DNA of 64,000 nucleotides from positions 5,533 through 69,532 of IMG/VR virus record IMGVR_UViG_3300031998_000064; one strand, 5' to 3'. Position 1 is the stretch's first letter. Each line of letters begins with the position of its first letter. This DNA comes from a virus (taxonomy: Duplodnaviria > Caudoviricetes). Positions 1 through 64,000 of the stretch are shown here, piece after piece. The notes beneath the pieces are model-generated. The model had not been told where the DNA came from. It ran no database searches and was given only the letters and a program-made list of their open reading frames with translations. Position numbers and translations under genes: made by a program.

Positions 1-1868
1 GAAGCTTGATCAAGTGTATTAAGCAACTTCGTCGCCCATACACTAAGATTATTATTCTTAGGATCAAATGCCTTACTTAATTCCTGACGAACAGCTTCGA
101 TTTTTTCTCCAATTTGTTTTTGCAATTCTTCGGTATTAAGATTAGCTTCGCCTTCTTTTGTTTCTAAAGAGGTAAGCTGATTCATATTCTGAATAGCTTG
201 ATTTAATGTTCCCAACAATGCATCAGCCCAAGGCTTAATGCTTTCAGGATTAAACATCTTAGCATAATCATCAGCCAATGTCTTAAAAGCCTCAGAAAGA
301 TTTTTAGAAACTGACTCTTTTCCGATTTCTTTTTGCAATGACTTAAGCTGGCTAATTGAATCTTTGAGTTGATTTATGTAATTTTCAAACAAATTCTTTG
401 CAAGTTTATCCTTTAAAACTTCAATTGAATTGACTTCTTTATTACACTCTTTTATAAATGCATTAACTTTTTTCTTAAACGCATCTTGGTTCTTTTTAGT
501 TAATGTAACTTTAGGTTCAACATCAATCGGGCTATCTTGAATCTTACGAAGCTCTTCTTTTACATCAGCAACAAAACTTCTTATCATGCTTGCGGCTGTT
601 TCAGTTTGAATATCTACAGTAAACAACATAGCATTATTTACTTGCTTATTAATCCTGTCGATTAACTTTGACATATTTTCTGTCATTTCTGTATACTTCA
701 AACTTTCAGCTTCTGACATACCGCCTTCAATAGCTTCTTTTGCGGTTTGTTGCATCTTAATTAATTCTGCCTGTAATTCATTTAAAAGTTTTTGATTTCC
801 TCTTGATTGATAAGCGGAAACTAATTGAACTTCAATTCTTAATGGAGTACTTTCAAGTTCTCTATTTACATCACTAATTAATTGTAACGCTTCTTCTTTA
901 ACAGTTGCGCGAGCATAACCATCAATATGAACTGGGATAGTAATTTTATCATCTTTATTTTTAGATTGAACAAAAATCTTTGATAAATCACCACCGCCAA
1001 GCTTAGAATATTCGTTCTGTATTTCTGCCTTTCGTCTTGCAATTTCTTTTAAAATACCTTCTAAACGATCAGATATTTCTTGCTGAAGTTCGGCTAAACC
1101 TGACTTACCAATCTTGGTTTGTCCCCAATTCGCATCTAATTTCATTATGGTATTAATTAGTCTTGATGCATCAGTTCCTAATCTTGATATTTCAAGTTGT
1201 AATCCGGAAATCATTGATTCTTTATCTGCCTTTGATTTCCTTGATCTTGTAATAATATCTATTTCATTTAGCTTTTGCTTATATAAATCATATTTTGCGA
1301 TTAAATCTGTTAACGCATCTTCTGAAGACTGATAAGGTTTTGTACCTCTTTGATTTATTGTTTTGTCAAATTCTTCAGTATATTTTCTTGCATTTTCTAA
1401 CTGAACATAATAATCTTTTAGCGTTTTAAGTTGTTCTTTATCAACAAGAGTAATATTGTTGCCAAGATGAGAAATGGCTTTTACCGCATTATTTATGACA
1501 TCAACAGTATTATTAACCGTTGTATCAATTTCCTGCATCTTATTTAAAATGCCGTCACGTTTGTTTTTAGGAGTTGCCTGAAGTAGTAATTTAAATGCAT
1601 TCTGCAATTCTTTAACAGCTTTAGTCGTATCAGCTAACTGTTGCTTTGCAGCATCATCAAGAACCCCTCCGGTTATTCTATCTATTTCACTTTTAAGCTT
1701 TTTAAGTTTGTCTTTAGCGTTATCAAATTCATCTTCAAAAGCTTTAGACAAACCAATTTTATCACCAAAATCTATACCTTTTAATTGGTTTTCAATATCT
1801 TTTACGTAACTTTCGACATCTGTTTTAAAACCAATATCAATTAAAATTCCGTGTTGTTTATCTGCCAT
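1..1868 (-). CDS. Probable tape measure protein, N-terminal part (runs off the window edge)
   Basis: Open frame from ATG at 1868 (MADKQHGILIDIGFKTDVESYVKDIE...) after a GGAGG RBS, with no stop to the window edge. Long helical K/E/Q/L-rich sequence at the distal end of the tail operon. Absent from the ORF track because it is truncated. Confidence 0.6.
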   Translation of the reverse strand, partial: MADKQHGILIDIGFKTDVESYVKDIENQLKGIDFGDKIGLSKAFEDEFDNAKDKLKKLKSEIDRITGGVLDDAAKQQLADTTKAVKELQNAFKLLLQATPKNKRDGILNKMQEIDTTVNNTVDVINNAVKAISHLGNNITLVDKEQLKTLKDYYVQLENARKYTEEFDKTINQRGTKPYQSSEDALTDLIAKYDLYKQKLNEIDIITRSRKSKADKESMISGLQLEISRLGTDASRLINTIMKLDANWGQTKIGKSGLAELQQEISDRLEGILKEIARRKAEIQNEYSKLGGGDLSKIFVQSKNKDDKITIPVHIDGYARATVKEEALQLISDVNRELESTPLRIEVQLVSAYQSRGNQKLLNELQAELIKMQQTAKEAIEGGMSEAESLKYTEMTENMSKLIDRINKQVNNAMLFTVDIQTETAASMIRSFVADVKEELRKIQDSPIDVEPKVTLTKKNQDAFKKKVNAFIKECNKEVNSIEVLKDKLAKNLFENYINQLKDSISQLKSLQKEIGKESVSKNLSEAFKTLADDYAKMFNPESIKPWADALLGTLNQAIQNMNQLTSLETKEGEANLNTEELQKQIGEKIEAVRQELSKAFDPKNNNLSVWATKLLNTLDQA

Positions 1869-1872
1869 ATCT

Positions 1873-2433
1873 TTATCCTCCTATGGTTAAAGTTTTATAT
1901 ATCTCACGATCTGCCCTTGCAAATCCATCTTTCATATACACATCCTTATGTTTTACAAACGTATCTCTTGATGCAAAAATCTCCTCTAATGGTGAGGGAT
2001 CCATAACAGGAGGGATCACACTAAAAGAATACGGTTCATATATCATTCCACTCCTTTGATTTACTCCACCAAATGCTGATGCCACACCATGGAATCCATG
2101 ATAAACCATATCAAATACCTGTTCTTTAGGATCTTGATAATAATCTTCCATGCTTTCCGGTGAAAGTTCAACACCGCCTCTAATAATCTGATTATGTTTA
2201 TTTTCATAAAACTTCTTAAATGAACGTTTTCGAAAATTGTCATAATGCCTATTATAATATATAGGATCATAATCCTGATAAAACATTTCTATAGCGATAG
2301 CCGCACTTGTAGTTATATAATCTCTTGCCTTAGTAGCCATCCCTATGCAAAAATTTTTTCCATAATTTTTTAAATCTTCATAAAGTTTATCAGATATCTC
2401 AATAGTCTGATTATAACTTGTTTTCTTTCCCAT
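1873..2433 (-). CDS. Hypothetical virion/tail-associated protein
   Basis: ORF track 1873..2442. Likely start MGKKT at 2433 after a GAGGTG RBS. Directly upstream of the tape-measure-like gene. Confidence 0.6.
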   Translation of the reverse strand: MGKKTSYNQTIEISDKLYEDLKNYGKNFCIGMATKARDYITTSAAIAIEMFYQDYDPIYYNRHYDNFRKRSFKKFYENKHNQIIRGGVELSPESMEDYYQDPKEQVFDMVYHGFHGVASAFGGVNQRSGMIYEPYSFSVIPPVMDPSPLEEIFASRDTFVKHKDVYMKDGFARADREIYKTLTIGG

Positions 2434-2464
2434 CAATCTCACCTCTGTTTATAAATTATTGTAG

Positions 2465-2507
2465 TGGGAGAGTAGCGACTCGAACGCTACATTACCGTTG
2501 TTCTCCC
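2465..2507 (-). ncRNA. Mini tRNA-like element (acceptor stem + T-arm, no D-stem or anticodon arm)
   Basis: Minus strand reads GGGAGA-ACAACGGTAAT-GTAGCG-TTCGAGT-CGCTAC-TCTCCC-A: 6 bp acceptor-like stem, 6 bp T-stem, canonical TTCRANY T-loop. Confidence 0.6.
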
Positions 2508-2510
2508 TTG

Positions 2511-2538
2511 AAAAAAGACGCAAGAATAATCTTGCGCC
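2511..2538 (-). terminator. Intrinsic terminator
   Basis: Minus strand GGCGCAAGA-TTAT-TCTTGCGTC followed by TTTTTT. Confidence 0.7.
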
Positions 2539-2623
2539 TTAACATTACGGTAACGGCAATCACCGTCACCTCAGCCTTTTCCACGCAAAGGATGGATAGG
2601 CAAAAACTGTTGAAATTTTGGTT

Positions 2624-2766: not shown

Positions 2767-5700
2767 CTAACGATAGTAAATATATATGTCAGCAGATGAA
2801 GTTACATCAGTATCATTTGCATAAACATTCCCTATTTTTATAATACTTTTAGTCGCTATTAATGATGCACCATACTTTGTTGTACTGGTTAAATATGCGC
2901 CATTTCTGAATCTTTTTTCTGAATCTGTTAAATATATTTTGGGTATATTAAATATAAACATATTATCATTATAATCTATAATAGCGCATATTTCATTATA
3001 TTTTGATGGTAAAGTAATATCAACACTTCCATTTTTAAATGCTAAAGGTTTCCATGATAAAAAATTATCACTAATCAGATTCACCGTTTCACTTAACTGT
3101 TCAACATCCGCATGAGTAGCCAATTCGCCGTTGTGGTAAGCCAACTGAATCTGTGAGCCGTTAGTTGACACATAATTATATCCCGATGAAAGTGCGATTT
3201 CATGCGGGGTTAACTGAATGTAAAATGGAGTGGTCAATGGATAAATAAGTTTTGTTCCTGTCAACGCCGTTTTCAGAGATGCTTCATCCGTGTATCGGCT
3301 ATCTCGAATATAAATATTGGAATTTCTTGCCGATATTTGTGCGTCCGTTCTGTCGCTATCAATATATGCTTTTCCGCTTGTTTCGTAGCACTCACAAAGC
3401 CAATTTAAACTTGCTATACTTGCCGTCATGTCTGAAACGGATGAACTATATCTTTCGTATGTACTATTGTAACTATACGCTAAATCACCCATATCCTTTT
3501 CGCCATGTGTAACCTTAAACTTACCCGTTCTAACATCCAATTCACCATAATACACCGTCTGCCCCAAACTCTCCGATAAATCTGTGGTTTTATGGTATGG
3601 TTCATAGGTGGTAGCACTTGCTGATTCTTCAAGTTGAGTATTTGAAATTTGTGAAGGTGTGATAGTGCTATCATCATTAAATGCTACTCCTATTATGCAA
3701 TAATTTGCATTAGCGGGTGTTGTGATAGTTCTATTATTTCCTGATACATAACCGTCAGCGCTTATGTATGATGGAGAACCATAGGCATTAGTTATAAACC
3801 ATAAAAAAGCAATTTTTAAATTACTACCTGTTACACTGAACGTATACTGTGTACTAGGTTTAACTCTAATAAAATCATTAGACGCTAATCTCCATGTTGA
3901 AGCTTCTGGAACACCATCTGAAAAAGCTCTCTGTACAAAATTTCCATTACAAAGATTCTTCCCACACGATAAAACCTCAATTTTATCATACCCACTGATT
4001 GCCCGTACATTGCTCGGTGACGGTGTTCCACTTCCTGCCTGTATCGGCTCAAAGGTGATTATCGGGTTTTTAGCTATCTGTGCCGATTTGAGGTTTGCGA
4101 TTGATATGGGATTGCCACTTGCACTTGTGGTGGTCATATCACCCGAAATGCCTGAATCTGTGAGGTTGCCGCTAGCATTTAGTCCGGCTATATTTCCATT
4201 CGTAGGTGATGTTACCTTATCAGCTTTTCCGCTAATATCCTGATGTTGTGTCAGATAATCGCTATGCTTATGACCACTATCAACAAGATTTCCGTTTGCA
4301 TCAAGTCCGGCAAAATTACCCGAAGTAGCCGAAGTAACCTTGTCGGCTTTGCCTGTTATATCGGGTATCTGACTTGTAGTAGCGTAGCTGTTAGTATCAA
4401 CACTACCATCGTTCTTCATAAGACCACTTGTAGATGACTTTTGGATATAATTTGACAAATCAACCATACCCGAAAGTAAGTCAAACTTATATGAAGCGTT
4501 GTTCTGCGTACCAACATCCACGATAACTACGTTGTCACCGATTTCTATGGTTTTTCCTGCGCCTTCAACGAAATCACTTGTAGTCACACCGCTATCGGTC
4601 ATGTTGTAAACGTTGCCAAGATTACTTACAATCAGCAAAGCAGGTAACAACTCGGCACAAGTTTTGTTACCAGATGGCTTATAAACACCGCTTATGGCAC
4701 TATCAACGTAATCGTGTACCGCATCCGAAGTAACCAAATCGGATGAACCGTCAACTACAGAATTAACATAATCTTTGGCAGATGCCGTTCCGAGCGTAGG
4801 CTTATTCTTAATAAAATCAACCTTTGTATTATCGCTCTGATTCCAATCGCTTTGAACCTGTGCGTCAGGAATGGTTGGCTTGTCGGAAAGATCATTGTAA
4901 GAACCACTAAAATCAGATTTTCCGTTCCAAGTAGTTTTCTCTGTGTCGGTTACAAGCCTGTGAGTGCTATCATCGTTCAAGTCAGCCAAATCATCAGGAA
5001 TAGTAGGCTTATTAGTCAAATCCTCATAATCACCGCTAAACAAAGCCGTATCATCGGGTAAAGCACCTACATCCTCGGCATCAAGAACAACTACACCTGT
5101 CTTGCCATTTACTGAATCTACGGCACCGCCACCGCTACCACCTTGAATAGCATAGTTAGTACCGTCAATACCTATGCTTGTAAGGCTTGCCGTTGTGTTG
5201 CCGGGATTCGCTACAACACTCGGTATGGTAGGTTTATTTTGAATATAGGCATCTGAATCTGTATCGGTTTCATTCCAATTAGATTGCACGTTTGCCTCGC
5301 CTGCACTCCAAGCTGTTTTTTCAGTATCTGTAACAGTTCTATGTGTTGAATCATCAGATAAATCGGAAAGAGCTGTGGGAATAGTAGGTTTGTTTTTAAT
5401 ATAATCCTTTTTAGTATTATCACTTTGATTCCAATCAGATTGAATTTGTGCGTCCGGTATGGTAGGCTTATTCTTAATATAATCAACCTTACTGTTATCG
5501 CTTTCATTCCAATCTGCTTGCACTTGTGCATCAGGAATCGTAGGTTTATTTGTTAAGTCAGTATACGAACCCGAGAAGTCGCTTTTAGCATTCCAATTTG
5601 CCTTTTCAGTATCTGTTACTAATCTGTGAGTACTGTCATCACTTAAGTCCGCTAAATCATCAGGAATACTTGGCTTATTAGTAAGATCCGTGTACGAGCC

Positions 5701-7236
5701 ACTAAAATCACTCTTAGCATCCCATGTTGATTTTTCCGTGTCTGTAACAAGACGATGTGTACTGTCATCAGATAAATCAGACAAAGCTGAAGGCACATTA
5801 CTTACATCAGCTTTTGCGTCAAGCTGATCTTGTACATTCGACTCTATACCGCCAAGAGTATTAAGTTCTGATACTGTAGCGGTTAGTCCTGTTAATGTAG
5901 TTGCTTCATCAGAAGCATTTACAATACCGTCATTATTAGTATCATAAATCTCTTTTAACATATCGCCAGTAGAAGTTCCGCCACCTCCACCTGACGAATT
6001 GATCGTAACTTTCTTGTTAACTGTATCGGGAACAAGCGTTACGTTAGTTCCGGCAACAAGTTCAAGAACATCTTCACCACTTGCCGTTATTTCAGTACTT
6101 GCAATTTTGATTTTCTTATAGGCATCACTAACTGTACCGCCACTTTCATTTGCGTTTTCAAACTTTTGTGTAGTAGAGTTATACTTTAATATCTGACCAT
6201 TCTGAATATTGCTGATACTGATATCATCTAAATCAGTTAGCTCATCAGGTATACTTGGCTTATCTGTAAGGTCATTATATGATCCACTAAAATTAGACTT
6301 ACCATTCCACGTAGACTTCTCCGAATCGGATACAGTTCTATGCCCCGAATCACTTTGAAGATCTGCAAGGTTAGGCTTATTAGTCAAATCAGCATAAGAT
6401 CCACTAAAATCTGACTTCCCATTCCATGCTGTCTTCTCAACATCGGTTACAAGACGATGAGTTGAATCATCATTTAAATCTGCTAAATCATCCGGTATAT
6501 CGGGTTTATTAGTTAGGTCATTATAATTACCGCTAAACAACGATGGTTTGTTTTTAATATAACTACCATCTGTAGGATCTGTAGTATTCCAGTCTGCTTG
6601 AACATTCTCTGCAGGATTATTCCAACGTTCTTTATCTGCATCAGTTACAAGCCTATGTGTAGAATCGTCTTGAAGGTCTGCCAAATCCGTAGGTACTGAG
6701 CTTTGTGTAGCAAACAGATTGTCAGCCTCAGTTTTTGAATATGTCTCCGTTTTAGAATAATAATTCGCAACCAAATGATCTATAGTTTCATATCCTATAT
6801 CATCATAAAGTTGCGAAAACTTTGTTGGTATATCAATACCTAATTGAGCCGTAGTTTTATTACCTTCAAGTGTCACACCATTAATTTGAGGTTTATTAAC
6901 TAATTGCCCATATTCATTGATGCCAACTTGTTTAACTATAAACTTATCGTCAGCATAGTTTACATTATATAATCTTACCCATTCACCATCTTCAATTCCG
7001 ACAATCTGTCCGACATAAGTATCGGTATTAAGATTAAGATTATATTCAGCTACTACAACACTTGGATACACATCAAGCCTACACTTCATTCTTATTAAAG
7101 ACTTATCCTCTTTAATAAAGACAACTTCATGTGTATCCTTGGTATATACGGTGTCATAGGCGTTTAGTTTCCCGCTTTCAAGTCTGTCAGCTATATCGGC
7201 AAAATTCATATAGCCCGGTTTATTTCTGTCAGCCAT
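2767..7236 (-). CDS. Large repeat-rich tail fibre / minor structural protein (1489 aa)
   Basis: 7 copies of DLxDDSTHRxVxDxEKxxW(xxKSxFSGxYxDLxxKP), 5 copies of VQxDWNxxDxxxxxYIxNKP, 2 copies of GKADKVTSxxxGNxAGLxxxGNLxDSG, a GDMLKEIYDTNNDG motif and a beta-rich C-terminus. Located in the tail region. Confidence 0.7.
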   Translation of the reverse strand: MADRNKPGYMNFADIADRLESGKLNAYDTVYTKDTHEVVFIKEDKSLIRMKCRLDVYPSVVVAEYNLNLNTDTYVGQIVGIEDGEWVRLYNVNYADDKFIVKQVGINEYGQLVNKPQINGVTLEGNKTTAQLGIDIPTKFSQLYDDIGYETIDHLVANYYSKTETYSKTEADNLFATQSSVPTDLADLQDDSTHRLVTDADKERWNNPAENVQADWNTTDPTDGSYIKNKPSLFSGNYNDLTNKPDIPDDLADLNDDSTHRLVTDVEKTAWNGKSDFSGSYADLTNKPNLADLQSDSGHRTVSDSEKSTWNGKSNFSGSYNDLTDKPSIPDELTDLDDISISNIQNGQILKYNSTTQKFENANESGGTVSDAYKKIKIASTEITASGEDVLELVAGTNVTLVPDTVNKKVTINSSGGGGGTSTGDMLKEIYDTNNDGIVNASDEATTLTGLTATVSELNTLGGIESNVQDQLDAKADVSNVPSALSDLSDDSTHRLVTDTEKSTWDAKSDFSGSYTDLTNKPSIPDDLADLSDDSTHRLVTDTEKANWNAKSDFSGSYTDLTNKPTIPDAQVQADWNESDNSKVDYIKNKPTIPDAQIQSDWNQSDNTKKDYIKNKPTIPTALSDLSDDSTHRTVTDTEKTAWSAGEANVQSNWNETDTDSDAYIQNKPTIPSVVANPGNTTASLTSIGIDGTNYAIQGGSGGGAVDSVNGKTGVVVLDAEDVGALPDDTALFSGDYEDLTNKPTIPDDLADLNDDSTHRLVTDTEKTTWNGKSDFSGSYNDLSDKPTIPDAQVQSDWNQSDNTKVDFIKNKPTLGTASAKDYVNSVVDGSSDLVTSDAVHDYVDSAISGVYKPSGNKTCAELLPALLIVSNLGNVYNMTDSGVTTSDFVEGAGKTIEIGDNVVIVDVGTQNNASYKFDLLSGMVDLSNYIQKSSTSGLMKNDGSVDTNSYATTSQIPDITGKADKVTSATSGNFAGLDANGNLVDSGHKHSDYLTQHQDISGKADKVTSPTNGNIAGLNASGNLTDSGISGDMTTTSASGNPISIANLKSAQIAKNPIITFEPIQAGSGTPSPSNVRAISGYDKIEVLSCGKNLCNGNFVQRAFSDGVPEASTWRLASNDFIRVKPSTQYTFSVTGSNLKIAFLWFITNAYGSPSYISADGYVSGNNRTITTPANANYCIIGVAFNDDSTITPSQISNTQLEESASATTYEPYHKTTDLSESLGQTVYYGELDVRTGKFKVTHGEKDMGDLAYSYNSTYERYSSSVSDMTASIASLNWLCECYETSGKAYIDSDRTDAQISARNSNIYIRDSRYTDEASLKTALTGTKLIYPLTTPFYIQLTPHEIALSSGYNYVSTNGSQIQLAYHNGELATHADVEQLSETVNLISDNFLSWKPLAFKNGSVDITLPSKYNEICAIIDYNDNMFIFNIPKIYLTDSEKRFRNGAYLTSTTKYGASLIATKSIIKIGNVYANDTDVTSSADIYIYYR

Positions 7237-33567: not shown

Positions 33568-35194
33568 TTAATTTATCTGTTGTACAAAACAATCAAGAAA
33601 TGCTTGAGGATTAACCTCATACAGTGTTTTTAAAAGTATTGGTTTGTTAATATCTAACTTTGTTTTACTGTTCTTTGTTTGTTCCGGAATACGAAATGCT
33701 CTATTTATAAGCCAATACATTAGTCCCGAATAATTTTTTGTAATGCCAGTTCTCCTGATATCCTTTACTAATTCATCAAAATTGTTCATCAATAAAATAC
33801 ATCTATCACTAAACCACATATCATATTGATTTTTTTGTGTTATTTCAAATTCATTTAAATCAATCGCATATTTTTCAATCAGCTTTTCTATTTTTTCGCT
33901 GCGTCTACGAGTCTCTTTGTTTTCACAAGGCTTTAGAAATTGCTCGATGGGTATTGTAGCAATTCCGCTTTTATATTTATTCAACTTAAGTTCTGACATA
34001 TAATTCATAGGACATCTTAAGTTAGAATTTATTTTTTTCTCTAAACGCTCTCGATTTTCTTTTTTACGTTTTTTCATTTGTTCGATTGATCTATTTTTTC
34101 TTGTATCTTTTTTAACCACTTTCCAAAAGAGTGGCAGTCCATTTTGATTAATATCAAGCTGAGACTTTATATATCGGATCTCATTTGGTATATCCAACTC
34201 AAACTTTTTCTTCGCACTATCTATTGCAATCTGAGCAACTGTCGCTAAGATACATACAGCATCTTGATATTTTATATCATCAAAGTTGTAAGTATATGTC
34301 AGAGCTATCTGTGCAAGGTTTGAAGATTCACCAATAGATAATTGTGATGATGCAAGAATATTATCTACTGTAGCAAAATCTTTCGGGACATTATTATATT
34401 TATTCTTTTCTTTAGGTATCAGATTAACAATTGTCGGATACTCTTTGTAACATTTTCTTGCATGTTCAACTATATCAGGCTGATTAGTAGTATAGAACTG
34501 GTCGCTATCTTGATCGCTGCCATTTGATCTTTCCTGCATACAAGTATGAATCATATTTACGGCAATACATAATCTACCAAATTTGAAATATCTATCAAAA
34601 TATGGATGATAGTGATTATGCAAAAAATCCAAGTTGTTACGACTGTTGAATGGTGATCTGAATGATGCAAGAAATTCTTTATCCCTAAACTTTTCACACC
34701 AACATTGTATCGCATTTTCTTCAACGTTAAATGTTTCATCTTTTTCGATATCCTCACCTACCGCATGAAGCAACATGGCGTATGGCGAACCAACTATCGT
34801 TAAATTATCCGCATTTTGAATTACTTCACCTGACTTAAAAACATTAACGTATGATTCTATAATTTTTCTTCGCCTGTCCCTAAAGTAAGAACTATAAACA
34901 AAATCCGGATTATGCTCCGCAAGTGCAATAAGTACATCATAATCGTTTGCAAAGTTTACATTCTTCCTTAGGTATTCAAGAAACACCCGATTATCTTTTT
35001 TCAGCTTGTCTATATATATAACGCTTCTTGCCGTCACCTCTGGCATTGTATCTAAATCGAGAGCGTTAATCATTTGGTATGACATCCTCTGTACATCACC
35101 CAACTTACTTTCGTGTGTTGTTTTAACGATGCCCCATTTATTGTGGTTCTTACGTACCCATGATGCCCAATAATCAAAAGTAATGTTAAAATTG
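33568..35194 (-). CDS. YonO-like single-subunit RNA polymerase, exon 2
   Basis: The frame extends upstream of the ORF-track start to the predicted 3' splice site. Contains FRSPFN and GSDQDSD (DxDGD-type metal site) and AQIAIDSAKK. Confidence 0.75.
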
Positions 35195-36055
35195 CATTTA
35201 TTATCCTAAAGGCTCTTTATCCTTTAGTTCTTATGATTTCTCATAAGATTAGACTATATCATCACCTTCGGCATTATCCGTTCAGGTGTCGGATTTCGTG
35301 GATGGATTATTGCTTGACTGCTCACCATCTAGTCGTTGAACCTTCTGAATTACTTTAATGTCTTTCATTCAGAGTGGTATATGGTTAGCATAGAAAATAA
35401 TTAACAAAATTCAAAATGATAGCCTTTAACAAACTGTTTGTTTCCATGACAGCATGATGATATTGCTGAAATTGGAATATTATATTTTTCAGATGCTTCT
35501 TTTTGACTATTTAATGTTTCAATAAAATTCATAAATTTGTCAAAAATATTAATAGGTTTCATTAATTTTTTAGCTCGTTTCCATTGTAAATCATTATATG
35601 TGACATTATTATACTGATTAGTACACCATTCAAGATTATCCATATGATTGTTTGTACTATCCTCATCTTTATGATTTACTTGTGGCAAATTATCAGGATT
35701 TGGTATGAACGCTTTAGCAACAAGTCTAGCAACTAAACAACGTTGTATATGTTTTGGATTGCTTAATGTAACCATTATTTGTAAATAATTATTACGATGT
35801 TTATTATATTGTTTTTGAAGTTTTAGTATTTTACCCGGTTTAAATTGCCATTTCCCTGTCGAATCTAATATTCTTCTATCTAAACTTCTTACTCGTCCAT
35901 ACGAAGATACTTCATATCCATCAAATCCATCAATTGGCTTCCAAATTTCATCTGAATTATAATTATCATTTTGCTCCATATTATTTTCCTTAGCCTTCCA
36001 CTATTAACCCGATGTTTTTAATTAATCATTTCTGATTAACTGGCCCAATTTGTTA
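35195..36055 (-). mobile_element. Group I intron (861 nt) carrying an HNH endonuclease
   Basis: Core motifs TTCAACGACTAGA and GATGATATAGTCTAA, and a P9 hairpin CTAAAGG/CCTTTAG. P1: exon UGGCU pairs with intron GGCCA with a U-G at the splice site. P10: AAATTG/CAATTT. Terminal G present. Splicing restores the frame MKWL/NFNITFDYW. Confidence 0.85.
35401..35979 (-). CDS. Intron-encoded NUMOD4-HNH homing endonuclease
   Basis: [20 protein letters not shown] (NUMOD4), [31 protein letters not shown] (HNH) and a C-terminal IENR1-like motif. Confidence 0.9.
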
Positions 36056-37002
36056 AGCCACTTCATCACACTTTCCGTACATATCAGCTTGATATCCTTA
36101 ACCTTAACATCCCTGCCAAACATATCCTTAACCGTTGCCGTATCATAATCGGTCTCAAACCTCTCACGCATAAACAATTCAATATTGGTATTGAACGCTG
36201 CACACTTGGTCATGTGGTTTCTAAGCAGGACATATCCATCGGCCCAATCGGGGAAGATGCTTGAATCAATCAAAGCTTGACCGTCAAATATACAATTTTT
36301 CAGTTGGTATGCATCCCTCTTTTTAGCAACACAGTGCTTGTCGGCATCCAACTCGATCGTTACCGCAGGAGCCGTCATGTACGAATCGACATCCTTAAGC
36401 ACAAGTACTTGGTCAGGATCAATCTCAATCGTTCCAACCATACCCGATGTAATGAGAGATTGGTATGCTCCAAGCTGAATTATCGGAGCATTCTTATCGG
36501 GAAGCTTTATATTCATAGTCAAAAATTCATGTGCCTTATCATAAAGCGAATCTCGGATGAACATACACGTTCCTTTTTTGGCCTTGCCCGGAGTCCTATA
36601 TAACATTTTATAATGGATCTCAGTATCCTTATATTTGACTGTCACTCCGTCTTCGTAAAAGATTTCTCTCAAGCGTTCCTTTTTTATCTCGATACATTTA
36701 TCTTTGTTTTTTTCGATATTGTCAAGGATCTCCGTAGCCTTATCCTCAGCATATATCTTGGGTATCTTCTCCGTTAGTTCTTTATACCCCTTGGTTTTAT
36801 ATGAGAATGCAAGACATATTATATCTCTTGAACTCCCGTCTTTGCGAACTTCCATGCCTGATTCGACCAAGAAATCTTTAAATAGGCTGTTCGACAGCAT
36901 CGCCGTTTCCGTATCGGGATATTGCCTAAAACCCCAATAACATTCATACAAGCTCGCAGCTTCATAGTTTTTTATCTTTATTCCGTATTTAGACATCATC
37001 AA
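36056..37002 (-). CDS. YonO-like single-subunit RNA polymerase, exon 1
   Basis: YKMLYRTPGKAKKG, IFDGQALID and LLRNHMTKCAAF. 947 nt (315 codons + 2 nt) joins exon 2 in frame to give about 857 aa. Confidence 0.75.
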
Positions 37003-37188: not shown

Positions 37189-37217
37189 ATTTTATCATAA
37201 AGTCAAATTTTTGTCAA
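37189..37217 (-). promoter_or_regulatory. Sigma-A/70 promoter driving the RNAP gene (left arm)
   Basis: TTGACA-17 nt-TAAAAT with a TG extension. Confidence 0.8.
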
Positions 37218-37224
37218 TACCCTT

Positions 37225-37515
37225 TAATTAATATTTTGGTAATATATATATCAATATATTAAGATTAGTATATCTAGTAATTATATATATGATTAATATA
37301 TTATATATCAAATCATTATATATTATATTATTATATAAGATTAGATATATCTATATATTATATATTTATAATCTAATCATATAATTATGATTAAAATATT
37401 ATATATATAGATTATAGATAAAACTATAGTACTGTATAAGTTATAGTATATAGTGTAAATTTATACTTTACTAACTAAGTTATAGTTTAGTATATGTTAT
37501 AGTTTATTATTTTTA
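37225..37515. other. Extremely AT-rich TA-repeat tract at the point of gene divergence (candidate replication origin)
   Basis: About 290 bp almost free of G/C, with TATA/ATAT/TAGAT/TAGT iterations and no ORF. Confidence 0.45.
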
Positions 37516-38025: not shown

Positions 38026-38517
38026 ATGATAGACGCAAGCAAGTACACACAGACACAGGTAGCCGACAACGAGGTCACAATCGCAGGAGTAAGCTTCGGC
38101 AAGCTTACGGACACGGATGCAGAGCGCATAATCGCGATCATACGCGGTATGCAGTCGGGCGCAGAACCCGGGAACGCACGGACACAGGCACAGGCAAGCA
38201 AGCCCGAGCCTAAGCGTGAGTACGAACCCGCCACGGACGTTACGTTGCCCATCACGGTCACGAAATGCACAAAGACGCAGTTCGCGTTCACCCTCGGGTA
38301 CGGTGGCGGACGTGCAGGAGCAAAGCTCCTGATACGTGAGGCTGGGTTCGCATGGAACGCCGACCTTAAGGCGTATGCAGGCACACCTAAGCAGGCAGAG
38401 GCACTCGGACTTGCGCTTGCAAAGGGCAACGCCACACTCAAGGTGTCCGCAGCAAGCGTACAGGCAGGGCGCGATAAGGCGGCTGCAAAGGCTGAGCGTA
38501 AGGCGAAGAGAGCGTAA
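38026..38517 (+). CDS. GC-rich first gene of the right arm, basic Ala/Lys-rich C-terminus
   Basis: GGAGAGGAG RBS, 163 aa, terminator overlapping the stop codon. Confidence 0.75.
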   Translation: MIDASKYTQTQVADNEVTIAGVSFGKLTDTDAERIIAIIRGMQSGAEPGNARTQAQASKPEPKREYEPATDVTLPITVTKCTKTQFAFTLGYGGGRAGAKLLIREAGFAWNADLKAYAGTPKQAEALGLALAKGNATLKVSAASVQAGRDKAAAKAERKAKRA

Positions 38518-38534
38518 GCTCTCTCCCCTTTTTT
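38507..38534 (+). terminator. Intrinsic terminator
   Basis: AGAGAGC-GTAA-GCTCTCT followed by CCCCTTTTTT. Confidence 0.6.
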
Positions 38535-38547
38535 GTGTGTAATACAC

Positions 38548-38593
38548 GCGTTGTAAACCGGGATACGTGAGGTTCGACTCCTCACACAACGCT
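38548..38593 (+). ncRNA. Mini tRNA-like element (acceptor stem + T-arm)
   Basis: GCGTTGT-AAACCGGGATAC-GTGAGG-TTCGACT-CCTCAC-ACAACGC: perfect 7 bp and 6 bp stems with a canonical T-loop. Confidence 0.65.
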
Positions 38594-38637
38594 TTAAGAG
38601 TTACCGCTTGAGCTTTAGAGCGGATCATACACGGGTT

Positions 38638-38690
38638 ACCGTTCAGCCTTAAACGGTCAAGGGCTTGCAATTCCCGGTTGAAAATTGCAC
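38638..38690 (+). ncRNA. Structured element, possible pseudoknot (related copy at 44379)
   Basis: ACCG...CCTT/AAGG...TGCAATT...CGGTTGAAAATTGCAC. Confidence 0.3.
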
Positions 38691-38694
38691 ATTA

Positions 38695-39300
38695 TCACGG
38701 ATAGCTTAACGACAGTGCGACCAAGTAGGTTGTCGTTGAAAGCGCAACACGAAATTCGATTGTAACGGCGTGATTAGGTAGGCAAACATATAGTATGATA
38801 AACCGACATACGACTTAGACCTGCCAATCAAATCCGAGCCGTGTGAAAGGGGTGTGAATAGTTGCGTGAGTAGACCAAACAGACCGTGTACTCCACATAA
38901 GCGGTACACACGTTGGTAGCGGTTGGTTCCAAATTCAAGGTGTTCGTTTAGTGAACGGCACTCAAGATATGGGTAAGAGGCACGGATGAAGTCGGACGGG
39001 CGAGTGCAGGTGATAATGGTATCGCAGTAACAGGCTTCAAGCATCTGTCACTAAAAGATGTGTGATAGTCCTTGCGAGCAAGAAAGTGGTGTCGCGAGGA
39101 AAGGTCATATGGTGTGTTACGAAATAAAGTTATTGCGAGATAAACACGAAAGGGCGATTGGCTAAACCCAAGTAGTCATAAGGTCATCAAGTGCGGATGC
39201 GAATGGTTGAAAGGTGAGCGAGAGTGCAGGTTCGAAAGCCCTTACCAACGCACTGTAAGATTTGATTAGTTGTCAGCGTTAGCGTAAGTATCATCCGTTA
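38695..39300 (+). ncRNA. Large structured ncRNA, ROOL-like (about 600 nt; ends approximate)
   Basis: No credible ORF. Many hairpins (AACGACA/TGTCGTT, GTATG/CATAC, GTGTAC/GTACAC, CATCT/AGATG, TTATT-GCGA-GATAA). 5'/3' closing pairings (38697-38715 with 39270-39297). The blocks ACAGTGC..GTTGTCGTT, ATAAGCGGTACACACGTTGGTAG and AGCCCTTACCAA resemble ROOL RNA sequences as I recall them (not computed). Confidence 0.65.
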
Positions 39301-39468
39301 ACAATAAAAGTTACCGGATAAACGCTTGCAATAACGGTGGGAATTGTGATATGATTATAGTGTGCGTTCGGGAGTGCGTTCCCTATCCTCGATACTGGGC
39401 ATTACGATTACTGATGATAACACGATTCCACTCGGCACAACCCCCGAGCTAACAGTGGTCGTATTTAT

Positions 39469-39559
39469 AGGCGATAGTAGTGGACGGGCATAGGCTTTTA
39501 ATGCTTATGTGATAGGCTTAACCTATCTTAACTATCGGGTTCGAGTCCCGAATCGCCTG
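39469..39559 (+). tRNA. Degenerate tRNA / tRNA mimic with Lys-type anticodon loop CTTTTAA, no D-stem and a long extra arm
   Basis: Acceptor AGGCGAT/ATCGCCT; T-arm TCGGG-TTCGAGT-CCCGA; stem GCATAGGC/GCTTATGT; extra arm GATAGG/CCTATC; no encoded CCA. Confidence 0.55.
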
Positions 39560-39580
39560 TTATGAAAGGTGGTGATATAT

Positions 39581-56506: not shown

Positions 56507-57163
56507 ATGGGACAGAGATCACAGATTTATGTAAGGTGGAATGAAAGAAATGGTGATATGTATTTAGTACCACGGTATTATCAATGGAATTACGGTACCC
56601 GAATGATAAGTCGAGCAAGAGGTATTATCGAGTGGCTTAAAGGTAGCGGAACATATCTTGATTGCGGAAATGAAGAAAAGTTACGCAGAATAATGGATAT
56701 CAACTTTGATTACAAGGATGTTGTTCTTGGACATGACATTATCAAGGAATGGAAAGAATATTGTAATGGTTTAGATTTTAATGATACAGTTTTCTTCGGT
56801 CAGGACAACAATGATGGTAAGCTCTTAATCGATATGCATATTGATTGGGGAGAGAACGAAGAAAAGATAACATTTAAGTATGCATTTCTTACATATGAAG
56901 ATGATTCTCCGGTTATGAACGGAGATGAATATATGCAATGGGATGAGGGCGGTTATGAAGATACCGAGTATAAAGTTTGGCGTGATAATCCGTATCTTAA
57001 AAAAGAAATTAAGTATACCGAACGAAATATTAAATGGATTGACAAACACGCAAAGCTGATGACGGCAGAAGAAGTTAAGAGATTTACAAGTTATAATTAT
57101 GCGGCTGATATGGGATTATTGATTGAGATACCATTCACGTCAACCACCCCGACCTACGGCTAA
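56507..57163 (+). CDS. Hypothetical protein (MGQRSQIY family); C-terminus altered by element insertion
   Basis: The last codons (STTPTYG*) are read from the inserted element; the reconstructed empty site gives ...EIPFTVY*. Confidence 0.75.
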   Translation: MGQRSQIYVRWNERNGDMYLVPRYYQWNYGTRMISRARGIIEWLKGSGTYLDCGNEEKLRRIMDINFDYKDVVLGHDIIKEWKEYCNGLDFNDTVFFGQDNNDGKLLIDMHIDWGENEEKITFKYAFLTYEDDSPVMNGDEYMQWDEGGYEDTEYKVWRDNPYLKKEIKYTERNIKWIDKHAKLMTAEEVKRFTSYNYAADMGLLIEIPFTSTTPTYG

Positions 57164-57481
57164 TGCCTTAGTGGTCGGAGTTTGCAAAAGCTCAGATTGA
57201 CTACTCTAAGTTCTTCAAGAACTACGTTATTTGTGTTATCACACCTATGGATGATTCCCAAGTCCGTAGCAACTGTGGAGGCTCTGTAAACAGTTCTGTT
57301 GGGTAGGAACGGTCAACCTCAAGTGACCGATTACGGCAAGCACTTATAACATTGAGGAAGGGAAACAAACTTTCATAAGAAAGGGAAGCCACTTGCGAGT
57401 AGGCTTTAAAGGTAACAATAGGAACGCCGTATAACCGTAATTCATCCTATCACCTGTAGAGGTGGGGGATTTCTTGCTCAC
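57139..57481 (+). mobile_element. Non-autonomous IS200/IS605-type (IscB-family) element: HEARO/omegaRNA plus end hairpin, iscB deleted
   Basis: Starts GTCAACCACCCC...ATTGAC. Contains CTAAG..CTACGTT, ACACC..GGATG..TCCC.AGTCC..GCAACTG, CTCTGTAAACAG, GGGTAGGAAC and AACATTGAGGAAGGGA. Ends AATTCATCC..CACCT-GTAG-AGGTGGGGGATTTCTTGC. TCACG at both junctions. Confidence 0.85.
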
Positions 57482-58746: not shown

Positions 58747-61700
58747 AATTTAATAGTGGAGCAGAAATGCTTAAGGTTATTTTAGACGGTACAGACTTAT
58801 ATAATCCTGAAAAGGAAACATATGTATTTGTTTATAACGATGCAGGTTCGATTGCATATTATTCGATTGATGAGATAACGGCAGATAGATTGGCTGATGA
58901 AGCTGAAGAATATGGAGATTATTGGAGTGGATTTCTTGGTATCGGTGGTTATATTGCTGACGATCCGTCTTATGATTTCTTCAAAGAAGGTGATTATAGC
59001 AATCTTGATTGGTGTAATGATAATTATAGTGGTGAATGGATTGATACCAAGGATTATGGAAAATAAAGAGGTATAAATATGGAAGAAAAATTAAATGCAC
59101 TTAATGAAACGCTTATAAAATTAGAAGCTGCGACAAATTTTCCGCATGATCAGATTCGAATACGGATAGAAAACGAATATTTTGCAATAGATATTGAGGA
59201 TGAAACTTGGGATAATTACTTACATTTTGACGAGGTAATTGATATATTAACCGATTTATTCAGAGGCATTGCATTAGGTAAAGGAATAGAATGGAGGTAT
59301 CGGGGATGAATATAACAATTGCTGAAGATCAGAAAATGTTTTTCTCACCATTCAGAATCCTTATTGAAGATACTAACGAGTTAAATCAAATTGCTGATGC
59401 AAGACAAAAGGCTCACGGAGAGGTTACATACTTCGACTATGATAATCCGGATAACAATTATGACGGTTGGTATGATTTTTATATTGATACAAACGGAAAA
59501 GAAGTGACATCTATGTATTATGAGAGCTTCGGTTCATACATAGATAAGATAGAACTTACTGAAGAAGATAAGGTTTCGCTAATACAACAGATAGTTGATT
59601 ATTATGGCGGCGAAGATGAGTACGAAACAATATGTGAAAAATGGAGGTTATGATTATGAGAATTTATTATGTAATGAGTTGTGATGAATGGAAAAGCTGT
59701 GACAGTATGAGGCTGAAGCTGTTAACTACGGATGAAGAAAAGCTCCGTAAGTATATTAGAAAGCAGATTAAGGAGGAAAATTTCTTTTACAACGGAAACA
59801 CAGTAAATGAAATGCTTAAGAATTTTGATGAGGATTGGCAGACAAGTAATATAGCTGATATTAATAGTCTGTTGGAATATGGCTGCTATAGTTATTCTGA
59901 TGACGGAGAGGAGATTTGATATGACAGTAAGGGAATTGGCACTAATACTTAAACAGTATAAGGATCAAGATGCAAAGATACATATTGGTTGTCAGGGTTA
60001 TACAACAATGGATGATCCTGACGATGAGTATGAGATAAGCGTTGTAAAGTGTAAGGGCAACGTATTGATAAGAGACAACAATGGATATTATGAAAGATGA
60101 AGATTAGGGGGTATATGCATGAACAAACTTCAAAAGGAACTTTACGAGAAACATGGCAAGGCTCGAATGTATGTATTTTATAATCGGCAAACCGGAAAAA
60201 CAGTTAACTACAAAGTGTACAATTCACATCGGAAGTTAATTGTTACAACAGACGATTACAATTATGCGGAAAAAATATTAATGGATAAGGGGTGAGGTTA
60301 TGGTACAACAGTTATTTTGGCTTGAACCAAAAGAGAAATGGCAGAGTAGAGGTTATGCTAATAATCAGTGGTTAGTTGTTGATTATGGCAAAAAGCAATA
60401 TCGTTATAATGTAGGGATGTATAATCCTACAGAGGGCGTGAACTCAATTAAGGTGAGTAGTAAAGGAAGCATAAAAGATTATATAAGTTATCTTCAGAGA
60501 CATGGCTTCGACCAGTTGACAAATTAAAGATTATGAGGTAAGATTAATGACGGATAAAAAGGAGGTTTTAAGATGAATGTTTTGTGTGTATGGGAAGGAA
60601 ACCTTTGTAGTGTTCCTACTGATGATGCTGAAAGTGGTTGGTATCCTGAATACGAAGATGCTAAAATTTTAAAGCAAAATTGTAATATTAATGAAGATTA
60701 TGGCTTATTATATGATAAGCTAGAAAATTTTGAATTTCAACTTGTAGAAATGAGTCATGACGGATTTCAACCAATGTATAATGCATATGATTCAGCGGCA
60801 ATGGAAATTATGATTGCATTATTGACTGAATTGAAAGCTTATTATGTATCAAAAGAATTTGAATTTATTAAGTGTGTTAAGGGCTGTTATCGAGTAGAAG
60901 ATGGTTGGAATATAAAAGGTACAGATAAAAACGGAAATGATTTTGGAATCTTTATATATGATTTATTTATAGATGACAATATTTCAGAAGATGAATTGAA
61001 ACATTTGGCATTTTTAAAATATGTAGAAGATTGCGATTTTAAAAAACTTAGAAGGTGGTGATGATTAAAATGAAAGATTATGTAGTTGTATACGAACTTA
61101 AAGGCAAAAGAGAGATTGCTTATATAACCGCTCAAAATCCACAAGATGTAGTTAATAAGTTTTATGCTACATATTTGTATGAGAATTTCGCAAATATTTA
61201 TAAAGGTCATACAACCATTAATGATTGTGACATCTTGACAATTGGAGAGGTTGTTGGTGGATGGAAAAATAAATATAAGGAGACAGAGGCATGACGGCAA
61301 AAGAACAGGCGTACAAACATGGGCGTGAAGACGCTCAACGGTTAGCAAGGGAAGGAGAACCGAAGGTAATGAACAAGGAAAAGGCAAAATGGTGGGTTGA
61401 AATGTTGTTTACTATCAAGGAATTTGAAGAGACTGTTGCGGATAATGCAGATCGAGCTGCGGAAATTCGAGAGGCACGGAAGTATGTTGTTGAATGTATT
61501 GAGAAAGCGGGGGATGAGGGATGAAAAATTTATGTCGAGCGTTATCTTGGATAGTTCTGCTTTGTGGAATATTTGGATCATTATATATTGCTGAAGCTTA
61601 TGGTCTTGAAGTTAAAACTTCGACAATAACTGCCAAACGAAATTGGGGATTAACAATAGGAATTTATATTGGAGCAATGATATCGACATTAGTCATATTT

Positions 61701-62907: not shown

Positions 62908-63375
62908 ATGATTACTCAATATGAACTAGTATTAAAGGATCAAATTTTATCATTAAAAGCCAAAAAAGAATTTGATATTTTAGGTATGATAACAGAAATT
63001 GATGATGCGGTGGAGTATATTGTTGAAAACTGTGAAATTAGTAATCTTGCAGTAGAAAAAGCTTTTGTTTTAGCTTTTAAAAATGGGATTTTTGAAAGTT
63101 TTATTGAAGTAGGTGTTGGTGATCATAAAACAGTATCTATTCCTTTGTCGTCTTGCTTTAAATTTTTATTATTAACAAATGCGGATGAATGTATATTTTT
63201 ACATAATCATATAAAAGGAAGTCCAATTATGCCGAGTCAAGACGACTTATCATCTCATGCTCAAGAAGAATATATTGCAAATTTGTTAAATATAAAGATT
63301 TTAGCAAATGGTATTATCCAAGATAAAACAAGATGGTTTGATATTATTTCAAATGAAGAGAGGTGTTTGATATGA
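62908..63375 (+). CDS. RadC-like JAB domain protein
   Basis: VEKAFVLAF...IFLHNHIKGSPIMPSQDDL (HxH-x7-S-xx-D JAMM motif). Confidence 0.75.
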   Translation: MITQYELVLKDQILSLKAKKEFDILGMITEIDDAVEYIVENCEISNLAVEKAFVLAFKNGIFESFIEVGVGDHKTVSIPLSSCFKFLLLTNADECIFLHNHIKGSPIMPSQDDLSSHAQEEYIANLLNIKILANGIIQDKTRWFDIISNEERCLI

Positions 63376-64000
63376 ACGGTAAACTTGAAGTTGAAAATAA
63401 AATAGAAGAGAGAATTAAACATAATCTTAATGGTTGTCCTGATTATGTATATGATTGGTATATGAATCTTAAAGCAAATAATAATACACCAGCGACCTGT
63501 TATGATTATCTTAACAAAGTAAAACAGATGCTTATGTCGTATGACAACATTCCGGATGTTAAAGCGTTAACACAAAGACACACAATTGAATATTTTGATA
63601 CCATACAAAAAATTAAAGACAAAAAAGGGAACGTAAAATATTCTTCGTCTTCTTATCAGCAGTCGGTTTGGTGTGCATTATCAAACTTCTTTGATTACTT
63701 ACATAAGGTAAGACTTATACCAAATAATTATATGGAAACGATTAAACGTCCTAAAAACAAAGATGAAGAAAGATTAAAGCAGGAGCGTGTACTTCTTACA
63801 AAAAGAGATTTTCATAATATACTGAAAATGGTGGATAAAGGTGTTGGAAATCCTACGGCAAAGAAACTGCAAAGTAAAACACGGTCAAGAGATAAATTAA
63901 TTATCTGTCTATTTATGACAACCGGCATGAGAAAAACTGCTCTGACAGAGATAAATATTGAAGATGTCGATTTAGATAATAAGACCTTACAGATAATCGA
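63372..64000 (+). CDS. Tyrosine recombinase/integrase, N-terminal part (truncated by the window edge)
   Basis: ATG at 63372; SAM-like N-terminus, then RDKLIICLFMTTGMRKTALTEINIEDVD (catalytic Arg box). Confidence 0.85.
   Translation, partial: MNGKLEVENKIEERIKHNLNGCPDYVYDWYMNLKANNNTPATCYDYLNKVKQMLMSYDNIPDVKALTQRHTIEYFDTIQKIKDKKGNVKYSSSSYQQSVWCALSNFFDYLHKVRLIPNNYMETIKRPKNKDEERLKQERVLLTKRDFHNILKMVDKGVGNPTAKKLQSKTRSRDKLIICLFMTTGMRKTALTEINIEDVDLDNKTLQII

Follow-up and report, generated by a model that had tools for sequence, protein, structure and literature searches.

A conserved tRNA top-half mimic ahead of the tape-measure module in a phage late operon, and its possible role in transcript processing

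tRNA-like elements inside longer transcripts

Where transfer RNAs (tRNAs) punctuate the transcripts of mitochondria, and where tRNA genes are embedded in bacterial operons, tRNA-processing enzymes cut polycistronic RNA into units. Bacterial RNase P and RNase Z recognise, and need only, the stack of acceptor stem and T-arm together with the elbow, not the anticodon arm. Transfer-messenger RNA (tmRNA) has a tRNA-like domain in which, besides the acceptor stem and T-arm, a D-loop analogue without a stem docks on the T-loop. Here we describe E1, a tRNA top-half mimic of 43 nt on the minus strand, at positions 2507..2465, of a 64,000-nucleotide stretch of DNA from an uncultured rumen/gut phage (Duplodnaviria; Caudoviricetes). 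This stretch, which we call the window, comprises bases 5533-69532 of the linear 69,532-bp IMG/VR virus record IMGVR_UViG_3300031998_000064, whose G+C content is 36%. E1 is a real, structure-selected mimic and is apparently unpublished: in the full-text literature we found t-elements, mascRNA-type modules, bacterial Y RNAs and messenger RNA (mRNA) substrates of RNase P, and no description of anticodon-less mini-tRNAs between phage genes.

The t-elements of plant mitochondria direct cleavage of mRNA by RNase P and RNase Z, and the cuts that form the mRNA ends have been shown in part (Forner et al. 2007, PMC1920247; Hanic-Joyce et al. 1990, as cited in PMC1920247). Like a t-element, E1 is a non-canonical tRNA-like fold that keeps the acceptor stem and the T-arm motif; to judge by its gene context, it would also lie inside a longer transcript beside mRNA ends. 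Unlike E1, t-elements belong to an organelle and are mostly larger, degenerate cloverleaves, whereas E1 is a 43-nt top half in the late operon of a phage with a bacterial host, its fold often accompanied by a terminator-like hairpin upstream.

A second likeness is to mascRNA and menRNA, the tRNA-like folds inside the long RNAs MALAT1 and NEAT1 (PMC4919922). In MALAT1, the upstream RNA owes its 3' end to RNase P and the protection of that end to an adjacent structure, and the small tRNA-like RNA is set free by RNase Z (PMC4919922); the counterpart of that protector would here be a hairpin at 2540-2511. These modules differ from E1 in residing in eukaryotic nuclear long non-coding RNAs and in having an anticodon-like arm, and their Rfam models do not match here. 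Non-tRNA substrates of RNase P are also known among bacterial and phage RNAs, where operon mRNAs, riboswitches, 4.5S RNA, tmRNA precursors and phage-induced regulatory RNAs are cut by virtue of tRNA-like features and take a tRNA-like shape (PMC4919922). Those sites are idiosyncratic and, as far as the same review goes, do not form a conserved, covarying module of acceptor, T-arm and GG as E1 does (PMC4919922). The tRNAs that punctuate mitochondrial and operon transcripts are functional, whereas E1 is without an anticodon arm and cannot decode, and folds of its kind mark two junctions only in 69.5 kb. tmRNA shares with E1 the acceptor stem, the T-arm and the stemless D-loop analogue, but has a long pseudoknotted body, a tag reading frame and a CCA-Ala end, whereas the two halves of E1 are joined by just 11 nt.

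The fold and its conservation

The acceptor-like stem of E1 consists of 6 bp, its 5' strand GGGAGA (2507-2502) pairing with the 3' strand TCTCCC (2471-2466). An 11-nt connector that includes GG (2501-2491) leads into a 6-bp T-stem (2490-2485 with 2477-2472), which is closed by a G-C pair around the 7-nt T-loop TTCGAGT (2484-2478); a discriminator A stands at 2465 with no CCA behind it, and the D-stem and anticodon arm are absent. All 12 pairs are Watson-Crick, and the 6 + 6 bp reproduce the 12-bp acceptor/T stack of tRNA. The minimum-free-energy (MFE) fold of 2455-2600 is exactly this structure, with z = -4.7. The T-arm is that of a tRNA, with a 7-nt TTCRANN loop, the G53-C61 closure and about 12 bp stacked with the acceptor (7 + 6 = 13 bp in the second element, E2, and in its relative at locus L021). 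A cloverleaf is excluded, given that 11-12 nt separate the acceptor 5' strand from the T-stem in E1 and E2. Directly 3' of E1 stands ACTACAAT, with no U-run, so that E1 itself does not have the make-up of an intrinsic terminator.

E2 lies on the plus strand at 38548..38592 and has the architecture of E1 built from unrelated stem sequence: a 7-bp and a 6-bp stem, a 12-nt connector with GG and the loop TTCGACT. An earlier note on this DNA had reported a mini-tRNA mimic on the minus strand, 3 nt after a hairpin and six U's, and a further copy at 38548 about 13 nt after a terminator. The first report is confirmed by reading of the sequence, by the MFE fold and by the strict scan described below, and the second by a terminator at 38507-38534, 13 nt after which E2 starts.

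Standard RNA searches pass over both elements. ARAGORN found no tRNA at 2465-2507 or 38548-38592, and no tmRNA; its one call is at 39468-39560. In Rfam 15, at E <= 10, no family matches E1 or E2, the models for tRNA, mascRNA, Y-RNA modules and tmRNA included, and there was likewise no Rfam match at 17 related loci; HEARO (57139-57370) is the sole family above its gathering score in the window. We set aside as hairpin noise a weak IS605-orfB-II match to the opposite strand, which scored 20.6 bits where 88 is the threshold, and likewise weak matches to GP20-b and DapZ near the hairpins.

Chance does not readily produce such folds. In the strict scan, which admitted only Watson-Crick pairs, a TTCRANN T-loop and stems summing to at least 12 bp, the 69,532-bp record contains two sites, E1 and E2, whereas 500 dinucleotide shuffles averaged 0.006 sites and none of them had two or more. 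A scan tolerating one mispair still returns E1 and E2 only. With G-U pairs allowed and a stem sum of 11, 0.6 sites are expected by chance, and the significance therefore depends on perfect pairing.

In at least six further lineages the E1 fold occupies the same slot, upstream of the module of tail-assembly chaperone and tape measure. It is identical, as is the terminator, at loci L003, L004 and L005. L009 has one change in the connector and a different hairpin and T-run upstream. In L008, two T-stem pairs have changed with compensation, and the fold, with no hairpin before it, directly follows a GIY-YIG endonuclease gene. In L012, compensated changes affect one acceptor pair and two T-stem pairs (the T-stem pairs are counted against L008 too), and the fold overlaps the stop codon of the upstream gene. 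L006 and L007, where the fold comes straight after a glycosyltransferase gene, have a different T-stem that contains a one-base bulge. In L018, whose chaperone is only 35% identical, the acceptor is wholly different and includes a T-G wobble, and a hairpin with T4 stands upstream. E2 is identical in L020; in L021 all stem bases are changed, and the 7 + 6 architecture, the loop and the GG connector are retained. The earlier note's expectation that homologous phages would keep the element and its stems thus holds in both slots.

We compared seven sequences from the two slots (E1 and E2 of the window, L009, L008, L012, L018 and L021), counting pairs by script because MAFFT did not align the differing acceptor types in register. 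All 84 stem cells are paired, 10 of the 12 pairs vary with compensation, and the T-loop and its closing G-C pair are invariant in all seven. Among the four E1-type sequences alone, four pairs have changed on both sides with 100% pairing retained, which one in 500 shuffles equals, and slid registers of the E1-type alignment give only 50-65% pairing. Read from the opposite strand, the T-G wobble of L018 would turn into an A-C mismatch, which speaks for pairing in the sense-strand RNA. Selection acts on the fold, not on the sequence. Two covariance models built from E1-type copies, R1 and R2, proved too acceptor-specific, scoring E2 at 17-19 bits and missing L018.

A proposed processing signal and its alternatives

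The fold is always co-oriented with the flanking genes, on the coding strand. Just upstream of E1 is an intrinsic-terminator-like hairpin with U6 (2511..2540, minus strand): an 11-bp stem at 2540-2515 and a U-run at 2516-2511, followed by CAA and then E1. With its G+C-rich stem and U-run, identical in L003-L005, this hairpin has the features of a terminator; a simple terminator scan of the window did not list it, in our reading because extension of the stem takes up two of the U's. There is no room for a promoter of the fold's own, because the U-run ends only 3 nt before the fold in the window, and in L008, L012 and L006 the fold directly follows the upstream stop codon or overlaps it. Downstream, a 31-nt, A/U-rich leader with a Shine-Dalgarno sequence (2434..2464, minus) runs from the discriminator to the ATG of a 186-aa gene in the tail-assembly-chaperone position (1873..2433, minus), which matches no family. 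Its 20 homologues come from rumen and gut metagenomes, and on each readable contig a giant PF10145 tape-measure open reading frame (ORF) follows. In the window, the tape-measure ORF (1..1868, minus) runs on to the start of the contig and encodes at least 2466 aa; PhageMin_Tail was found in its orthologues in relatives.

The distance from discriminator to ATG is 31 nt in the window, 33 in L009, 31 in L008, 28 in L012 and 31 in L006; overall, the spacing lies between 28 and 33 nt in six of seven lineages, whether a homologue of the 186-aa gene follows or a gene of 133-137 aa. The upstream genes, by contrast, differ from lineage to lineage. In the alignment with L003, similarity begins about 100 nt upstream of the fold and extends into the chaperone gene, with unrelated genes further upstream, and the fold therefore travels with the downstream module. 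We consider that this gene context fits a cis-acting processing signal for the tape-measure module downstream.

The earlier note had placed the mini-tRNA just ahead of two genes leading into the tape measure, and had read a recurring unit of terminator and mini-tRNA as a regulatory device, for example one in which RNase P cleavage gives read-through transcripts a new, protected 5' end and sets the dosage of downstream genes. The unit does recur, with a hairpin just upstream of the fold in five of eight distinct lineages, one of them without a U-run; it is not obligatory, since the other three have none and their folds abut or overlap the stop codon. As to the two genes, the window has only one, the 186-aa gene at 2433..1873, while some relatives have two. 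The earlier interpretation is thus partly supported.

We propose, with moderate confidence, that E1 marks the long late transcript for processing by RNase P and RNase Z, which we hold to be its most likely role. The GG of the connector would dock on the T-loop as G18-G19 of the D-loop does in tRNA, and the host enzymes of tRNA maturation would recognise this top half within the late polycistronic RNA. Transcription would continue through the hairpin at 2540-2511; RNase P would then cut immediately 5' of 2507, leaving an upstream RNA that ends in the hairpin as its 3' protector, and RNase Z would probably cut 3' of the discriminator at 2465. The two cuts would jointly free a chaperone/tape-measure mRNA with a defined leader of about 31 nt, while RNase P alone would leave an mRNA that starts with a base-paired, tRNA-like fold as its protected 5' end. 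In either case the expression and stability of the very long tape-measure mRNA may be uncoupled from the genes upstream. E2 could play an equivalent part where a gene-free RNA locus begins, a locus closed on its 3' side by a tRNA-like gene.

From weak similarity together with synteny, we infer that the phage resembles SPbeta and has an RNA polymerase of the YonO type, which presumably produces the long late transcript. YonO of SPbeta pauses little and reads all of the late genes as a single operon; it is about a quarter of the size of a multi-subunit core and is expected by its authors to be devoid of most domains conserved in multi-subunit polymerases, among which they discuss the flap, through which those enzymes achieve hairpin-dependent termination (PMC5467207). 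These properties make both read-through of the hairpin and a need for post-transcriptional division plausible here. As to the 3' end, a related record, IMGVR_UViG_3300028797_002495 (G003), has genuine tRNA genes without an encoded CCA; the RNase Z route would therefore be normal in this phage group, and the missing CCA of the mini-tRNAs is compatible with processing.

Several observations weigh against this proposal. The classical helpers of RNase P are missing: no copy has a 3' RCCA, and the base at -1 is A or C in most copies and only rarely T (U in the RNA), which is short of an optimal substrate. The acceptor GGGAGA/TCTCCC with its A is unchanged in five E1-type lineages whose neighbouring proteins are down to 54-63% identity, a constancy that hints at a sequence-specific need beyond pure recognition of shape. 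Two folds in 69.5 kb are too few to punctuate the operon generally. The leader of L018 is just 11 nt long. Finally, the fold is absent from the E1 slot of the more distant relatives L010, L014/L019, L016/L030 and L017 and from that of L013, which encodes the same chaperone protein as the fold-bearing L012; these relatives show a plain hairpin or nothing at the slot, and no tRNA, ribozyme or Rfam family to demonstrate that the slots are equivalent.

The constancy of the acceptor and discriminator A in five E1-type lineages, beyond what shape would require, is also what one would expect if the released fold acted in trans, as a CCA-tailed small stable RNA that serves as a primer or as a decoy or sponge for binders of the acceptor end or elbow. 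Possible targets would be acceptor-targeting defence toxins, RNase P or RNase Z, or the CCA-adding enzyme. A complete and tightly preserved elbow mimic, GG connector and canonical T-loop included, would suit a stable RNA, and released tRNA-like RNAs such as mascRNA provide a precedent (PMC4919922). However, the acceptors of E2, L018 and L021 are entirely different and leave no common identity or target; the position follows gene junctions and keeps a fixed spacing to the start codon downstream; the fold lacks its own promoter, and the record contains a single copy of each type; and the same cleavages would be needed as for a processing signal. We regard a role in trans as unlikely. Slightly less likely still is the specific version in which anticodon-less mini-tRNAs, released by RNase P and RNase Z and CCA-tailed, accumulate and act in trans, for instance by sequestering host defence toxins or enzymes that attack or read tRNA acceptor ends and elbows, the conserved GGGAGA/TCTCCC-A being their specific identity.

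The fold might instead remain uncleaved in the mRNA, either blocking an exonuclease or, as an elbow mimic, contacting the ribosome or another elbow reader to boost or gate translation. The constant spacing to the start codon and the A/U-rich leader would accord with this, as would a stable fold that forms in its context. But an internal hairpin gives no protection from a 5' exonuclease unless an adjoining end is created, and a plain hairpin would be enough for a block, yet the full T-loop, its G-C closure and the GG are conserved. Nor is there conserved pairing with the Shine-Dalgarno region: on refolding of the fold together with the leader, no consistent sequestration was seen across lineages, and after E2 there is no start codon at a comparable distance. 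We consider such a role quite improbable.

Even less is to be said for a signal at the level of DNA, whether a hairpin or cruciform promoter for the YonO-like polymerase or a site of recombination or homing at the module boundary, which we hold to be very improbable. YonO has no defined promoter (PMC5467207), the slot forms a recombination boundary upstream of which each relative has other genes, and the GIY-YIG endonuclease gene of L008 ends right at the fold. An endonuclease gene, however, adjoins the fold in one lineage only, the wobble of L018 is a mismatch on the other strand, and the conserved TTCRANN loop, G-C closure, GG connector and discriminator are features of tRNA as RNA. Least probable of all is a functionless remnant, either a tRNA gene in decay or the 3' part of a tRNA that site-specific integration left behind: the phage group does carry tRNA genes and odd tRNA-like genes, and tRNA gene fragments are common in prokaryotic genomes, but E1, unlike the tRNA 3' fragment of an att site, has both acceptor strands, which covary, with no mispair in 84 cells while neighbouring proteins are only 35-63% identical; the integrase-like ORF (63363-63998) is about 61 kb away, and none of 185,579 species genomes has a matching tRNA 3' end or mini element.

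The phage, its relatives and the E2 locus

Late and structural genes occupy the minus strand between about 37000 and 1, and early genes the plus strand from about 37550 onwards. Terminase, portal and exonuclease are identifiable among the proteins of the window; the cultured relatives of the portal, all below 30% identity, are large siphophages of Firmicutes, SPbeta-like ones included, and the families YomU, YonG and YonJ are present in metagenomic relatives. The YonO-like RNA polymerase gene is split (33568..37002, minus) into ORFs of 326 aa and 511 aa that flank an HNH/NUMOD4 ORF. The 326-aa ORF (37002..36022) aligns colinearly with SPbeta YonO at E = 3e-6, and its 511-aa partner matches a phage ORF annotated as an RNA-dependent RNA polymerase. 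The interrupting HNH/NUMOD4 endonuclease ORF lies at 35401-35979, and in L020 and L022 the polymerase is one ORF of 860 aa. These unsplit orthologues adjoin an HU-like gene, as yonO does in SPbeta, and in L020 genes for YonG and YonJ stand alongside.

Between the divergent late and early arms, 37200-37500 is extremely A+T-rich (11-12% G+C), and a G+C island (45-61%, against 36% for the genome overall) follows and reaches about 41300. The HEARO match, an IscB-type omega RNA on the plus strand, scores 115.8 bits and lies in the early region. Upstream of E1, two further hairpins are predicted at 2545..2600 on the minus strand, inside the block conserved with L003, beyond which, upstream of about 2600, the sequence is unrelated; next comes a tail-fibre-like gene of 1489 aa (2767..7236, minus; phrog_9729). 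The gene of 133-137 aa, with a conserved MKNY..PI..DNEELAEGVYATGSG N-terminus, stands between mini-tRNA and chaperone gene in L009 (5581-5994), L012 (5581-5988) and L008 (2041-2442), and is not present in the window.

In the window, as in L020 and L021, a conserved gap of 0.9-1.35 kb without genes is bracketed by E2 and a degenerate tRNA-like gene. The tRNA-like gene of the window (39468..39560, plus) is 93 nt long, with the anticodon UUA and a long extra arm; ARAGORN calls it 'tRNA-Stop(tta)', and the Rfam tRNA model gives no match to 39468-39560 at E <= 10. L020 has the same gene, and at its position in L021 is a 'tRNA-Val(aac)' that Rfam misses too. L022 has the same gap, with an unclear element and no tRNA-like gene. 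The gap spans 38593-39467 (plus) in the window, 10562-11436 in L020, 5535-6670 in L021 and 5484-6758 in L022, and is preceded by a G+C-rich (58-61%) ORF of 153-163 aa. The gaps of distant relatives have no sequence similarity to one another. ROOL or GOLLD is not supported as the identity of the stretch after E2, for which no Rfam match was found at E <= 10 and the fold z was only -1.28.

A wider search returned little. None of 50,697 phage records matched the region by blastn, scans of IMG/VR with single proteins were likewise empty, and a pattern scan of IMG/VR for the E1-type acceptor and T-loop matched nothing besides the record itself. The IMG/VR fragment L001/L002, whose portal is 77% identical, reaches neither slot, and the element is not present in it. 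Six pattern matches in the 185,579 species genomes all lack the T-stem and were put down to chance, and no host was assigned from them. Neither the first 72 kb of SPbeta, its tape-measure region included, nor Enterocloster phage PMBT24, a cultured phage whose polymerase is homologous, has a mini-tRNA; we therefore found no laboratory model. SPbeta does have an unannotated gap of 1.7 kb between yonK and yonN (59153-60833; L044 9153-10833), with no mini-tRNA in it.

On the minus strand of G003, at 49346-48299 (loci L036 and L032), is an RNA-only cluster headed by a mini-tRNA (49346-49308). Two tRNA-like genes of about 110 nt come next, with one shared acceptor and inserts of about 50 nt in the anticodon region, and genuine tRNA-Leu(taa) and tRNA-Gln(ttg) follow; no member encodes CCA. 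The slot of L017, at about 2290-2330, holds only a terminator hairpin, with a 5-nt loop and a 10-bp stem that contains GGGAGA/TCTCCC and ACT. It gives the impression of a mini-tRNA reduced to a simple terminator by loss of its connector and T-arm.

If the proposed cuts are true, phages of Gram-positive gut and rumen bacteria would use the cheapest of tRNA mimics, of about 43 nt, to borrow the essential tRNA-processing enzymes of the host for maturation of their mRNA, and bacterial viruses would have their own equivalent of mitochondrial t-elements and of MALAT1/mascRNA processing. The division of a single giant late transcript made by a YonO-type polymerase would then be accounted for, as would the way in which a tape-measure message of 7-13 kb acquires a 5' end of its own. 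The fold would also constitute a new class for RNA family databases, from which its current absence means that sites are missed in phage annotation, and could provide a compact RNA processing tag, driven by host enzymes, for polycistronic constructs in Firmicutes.

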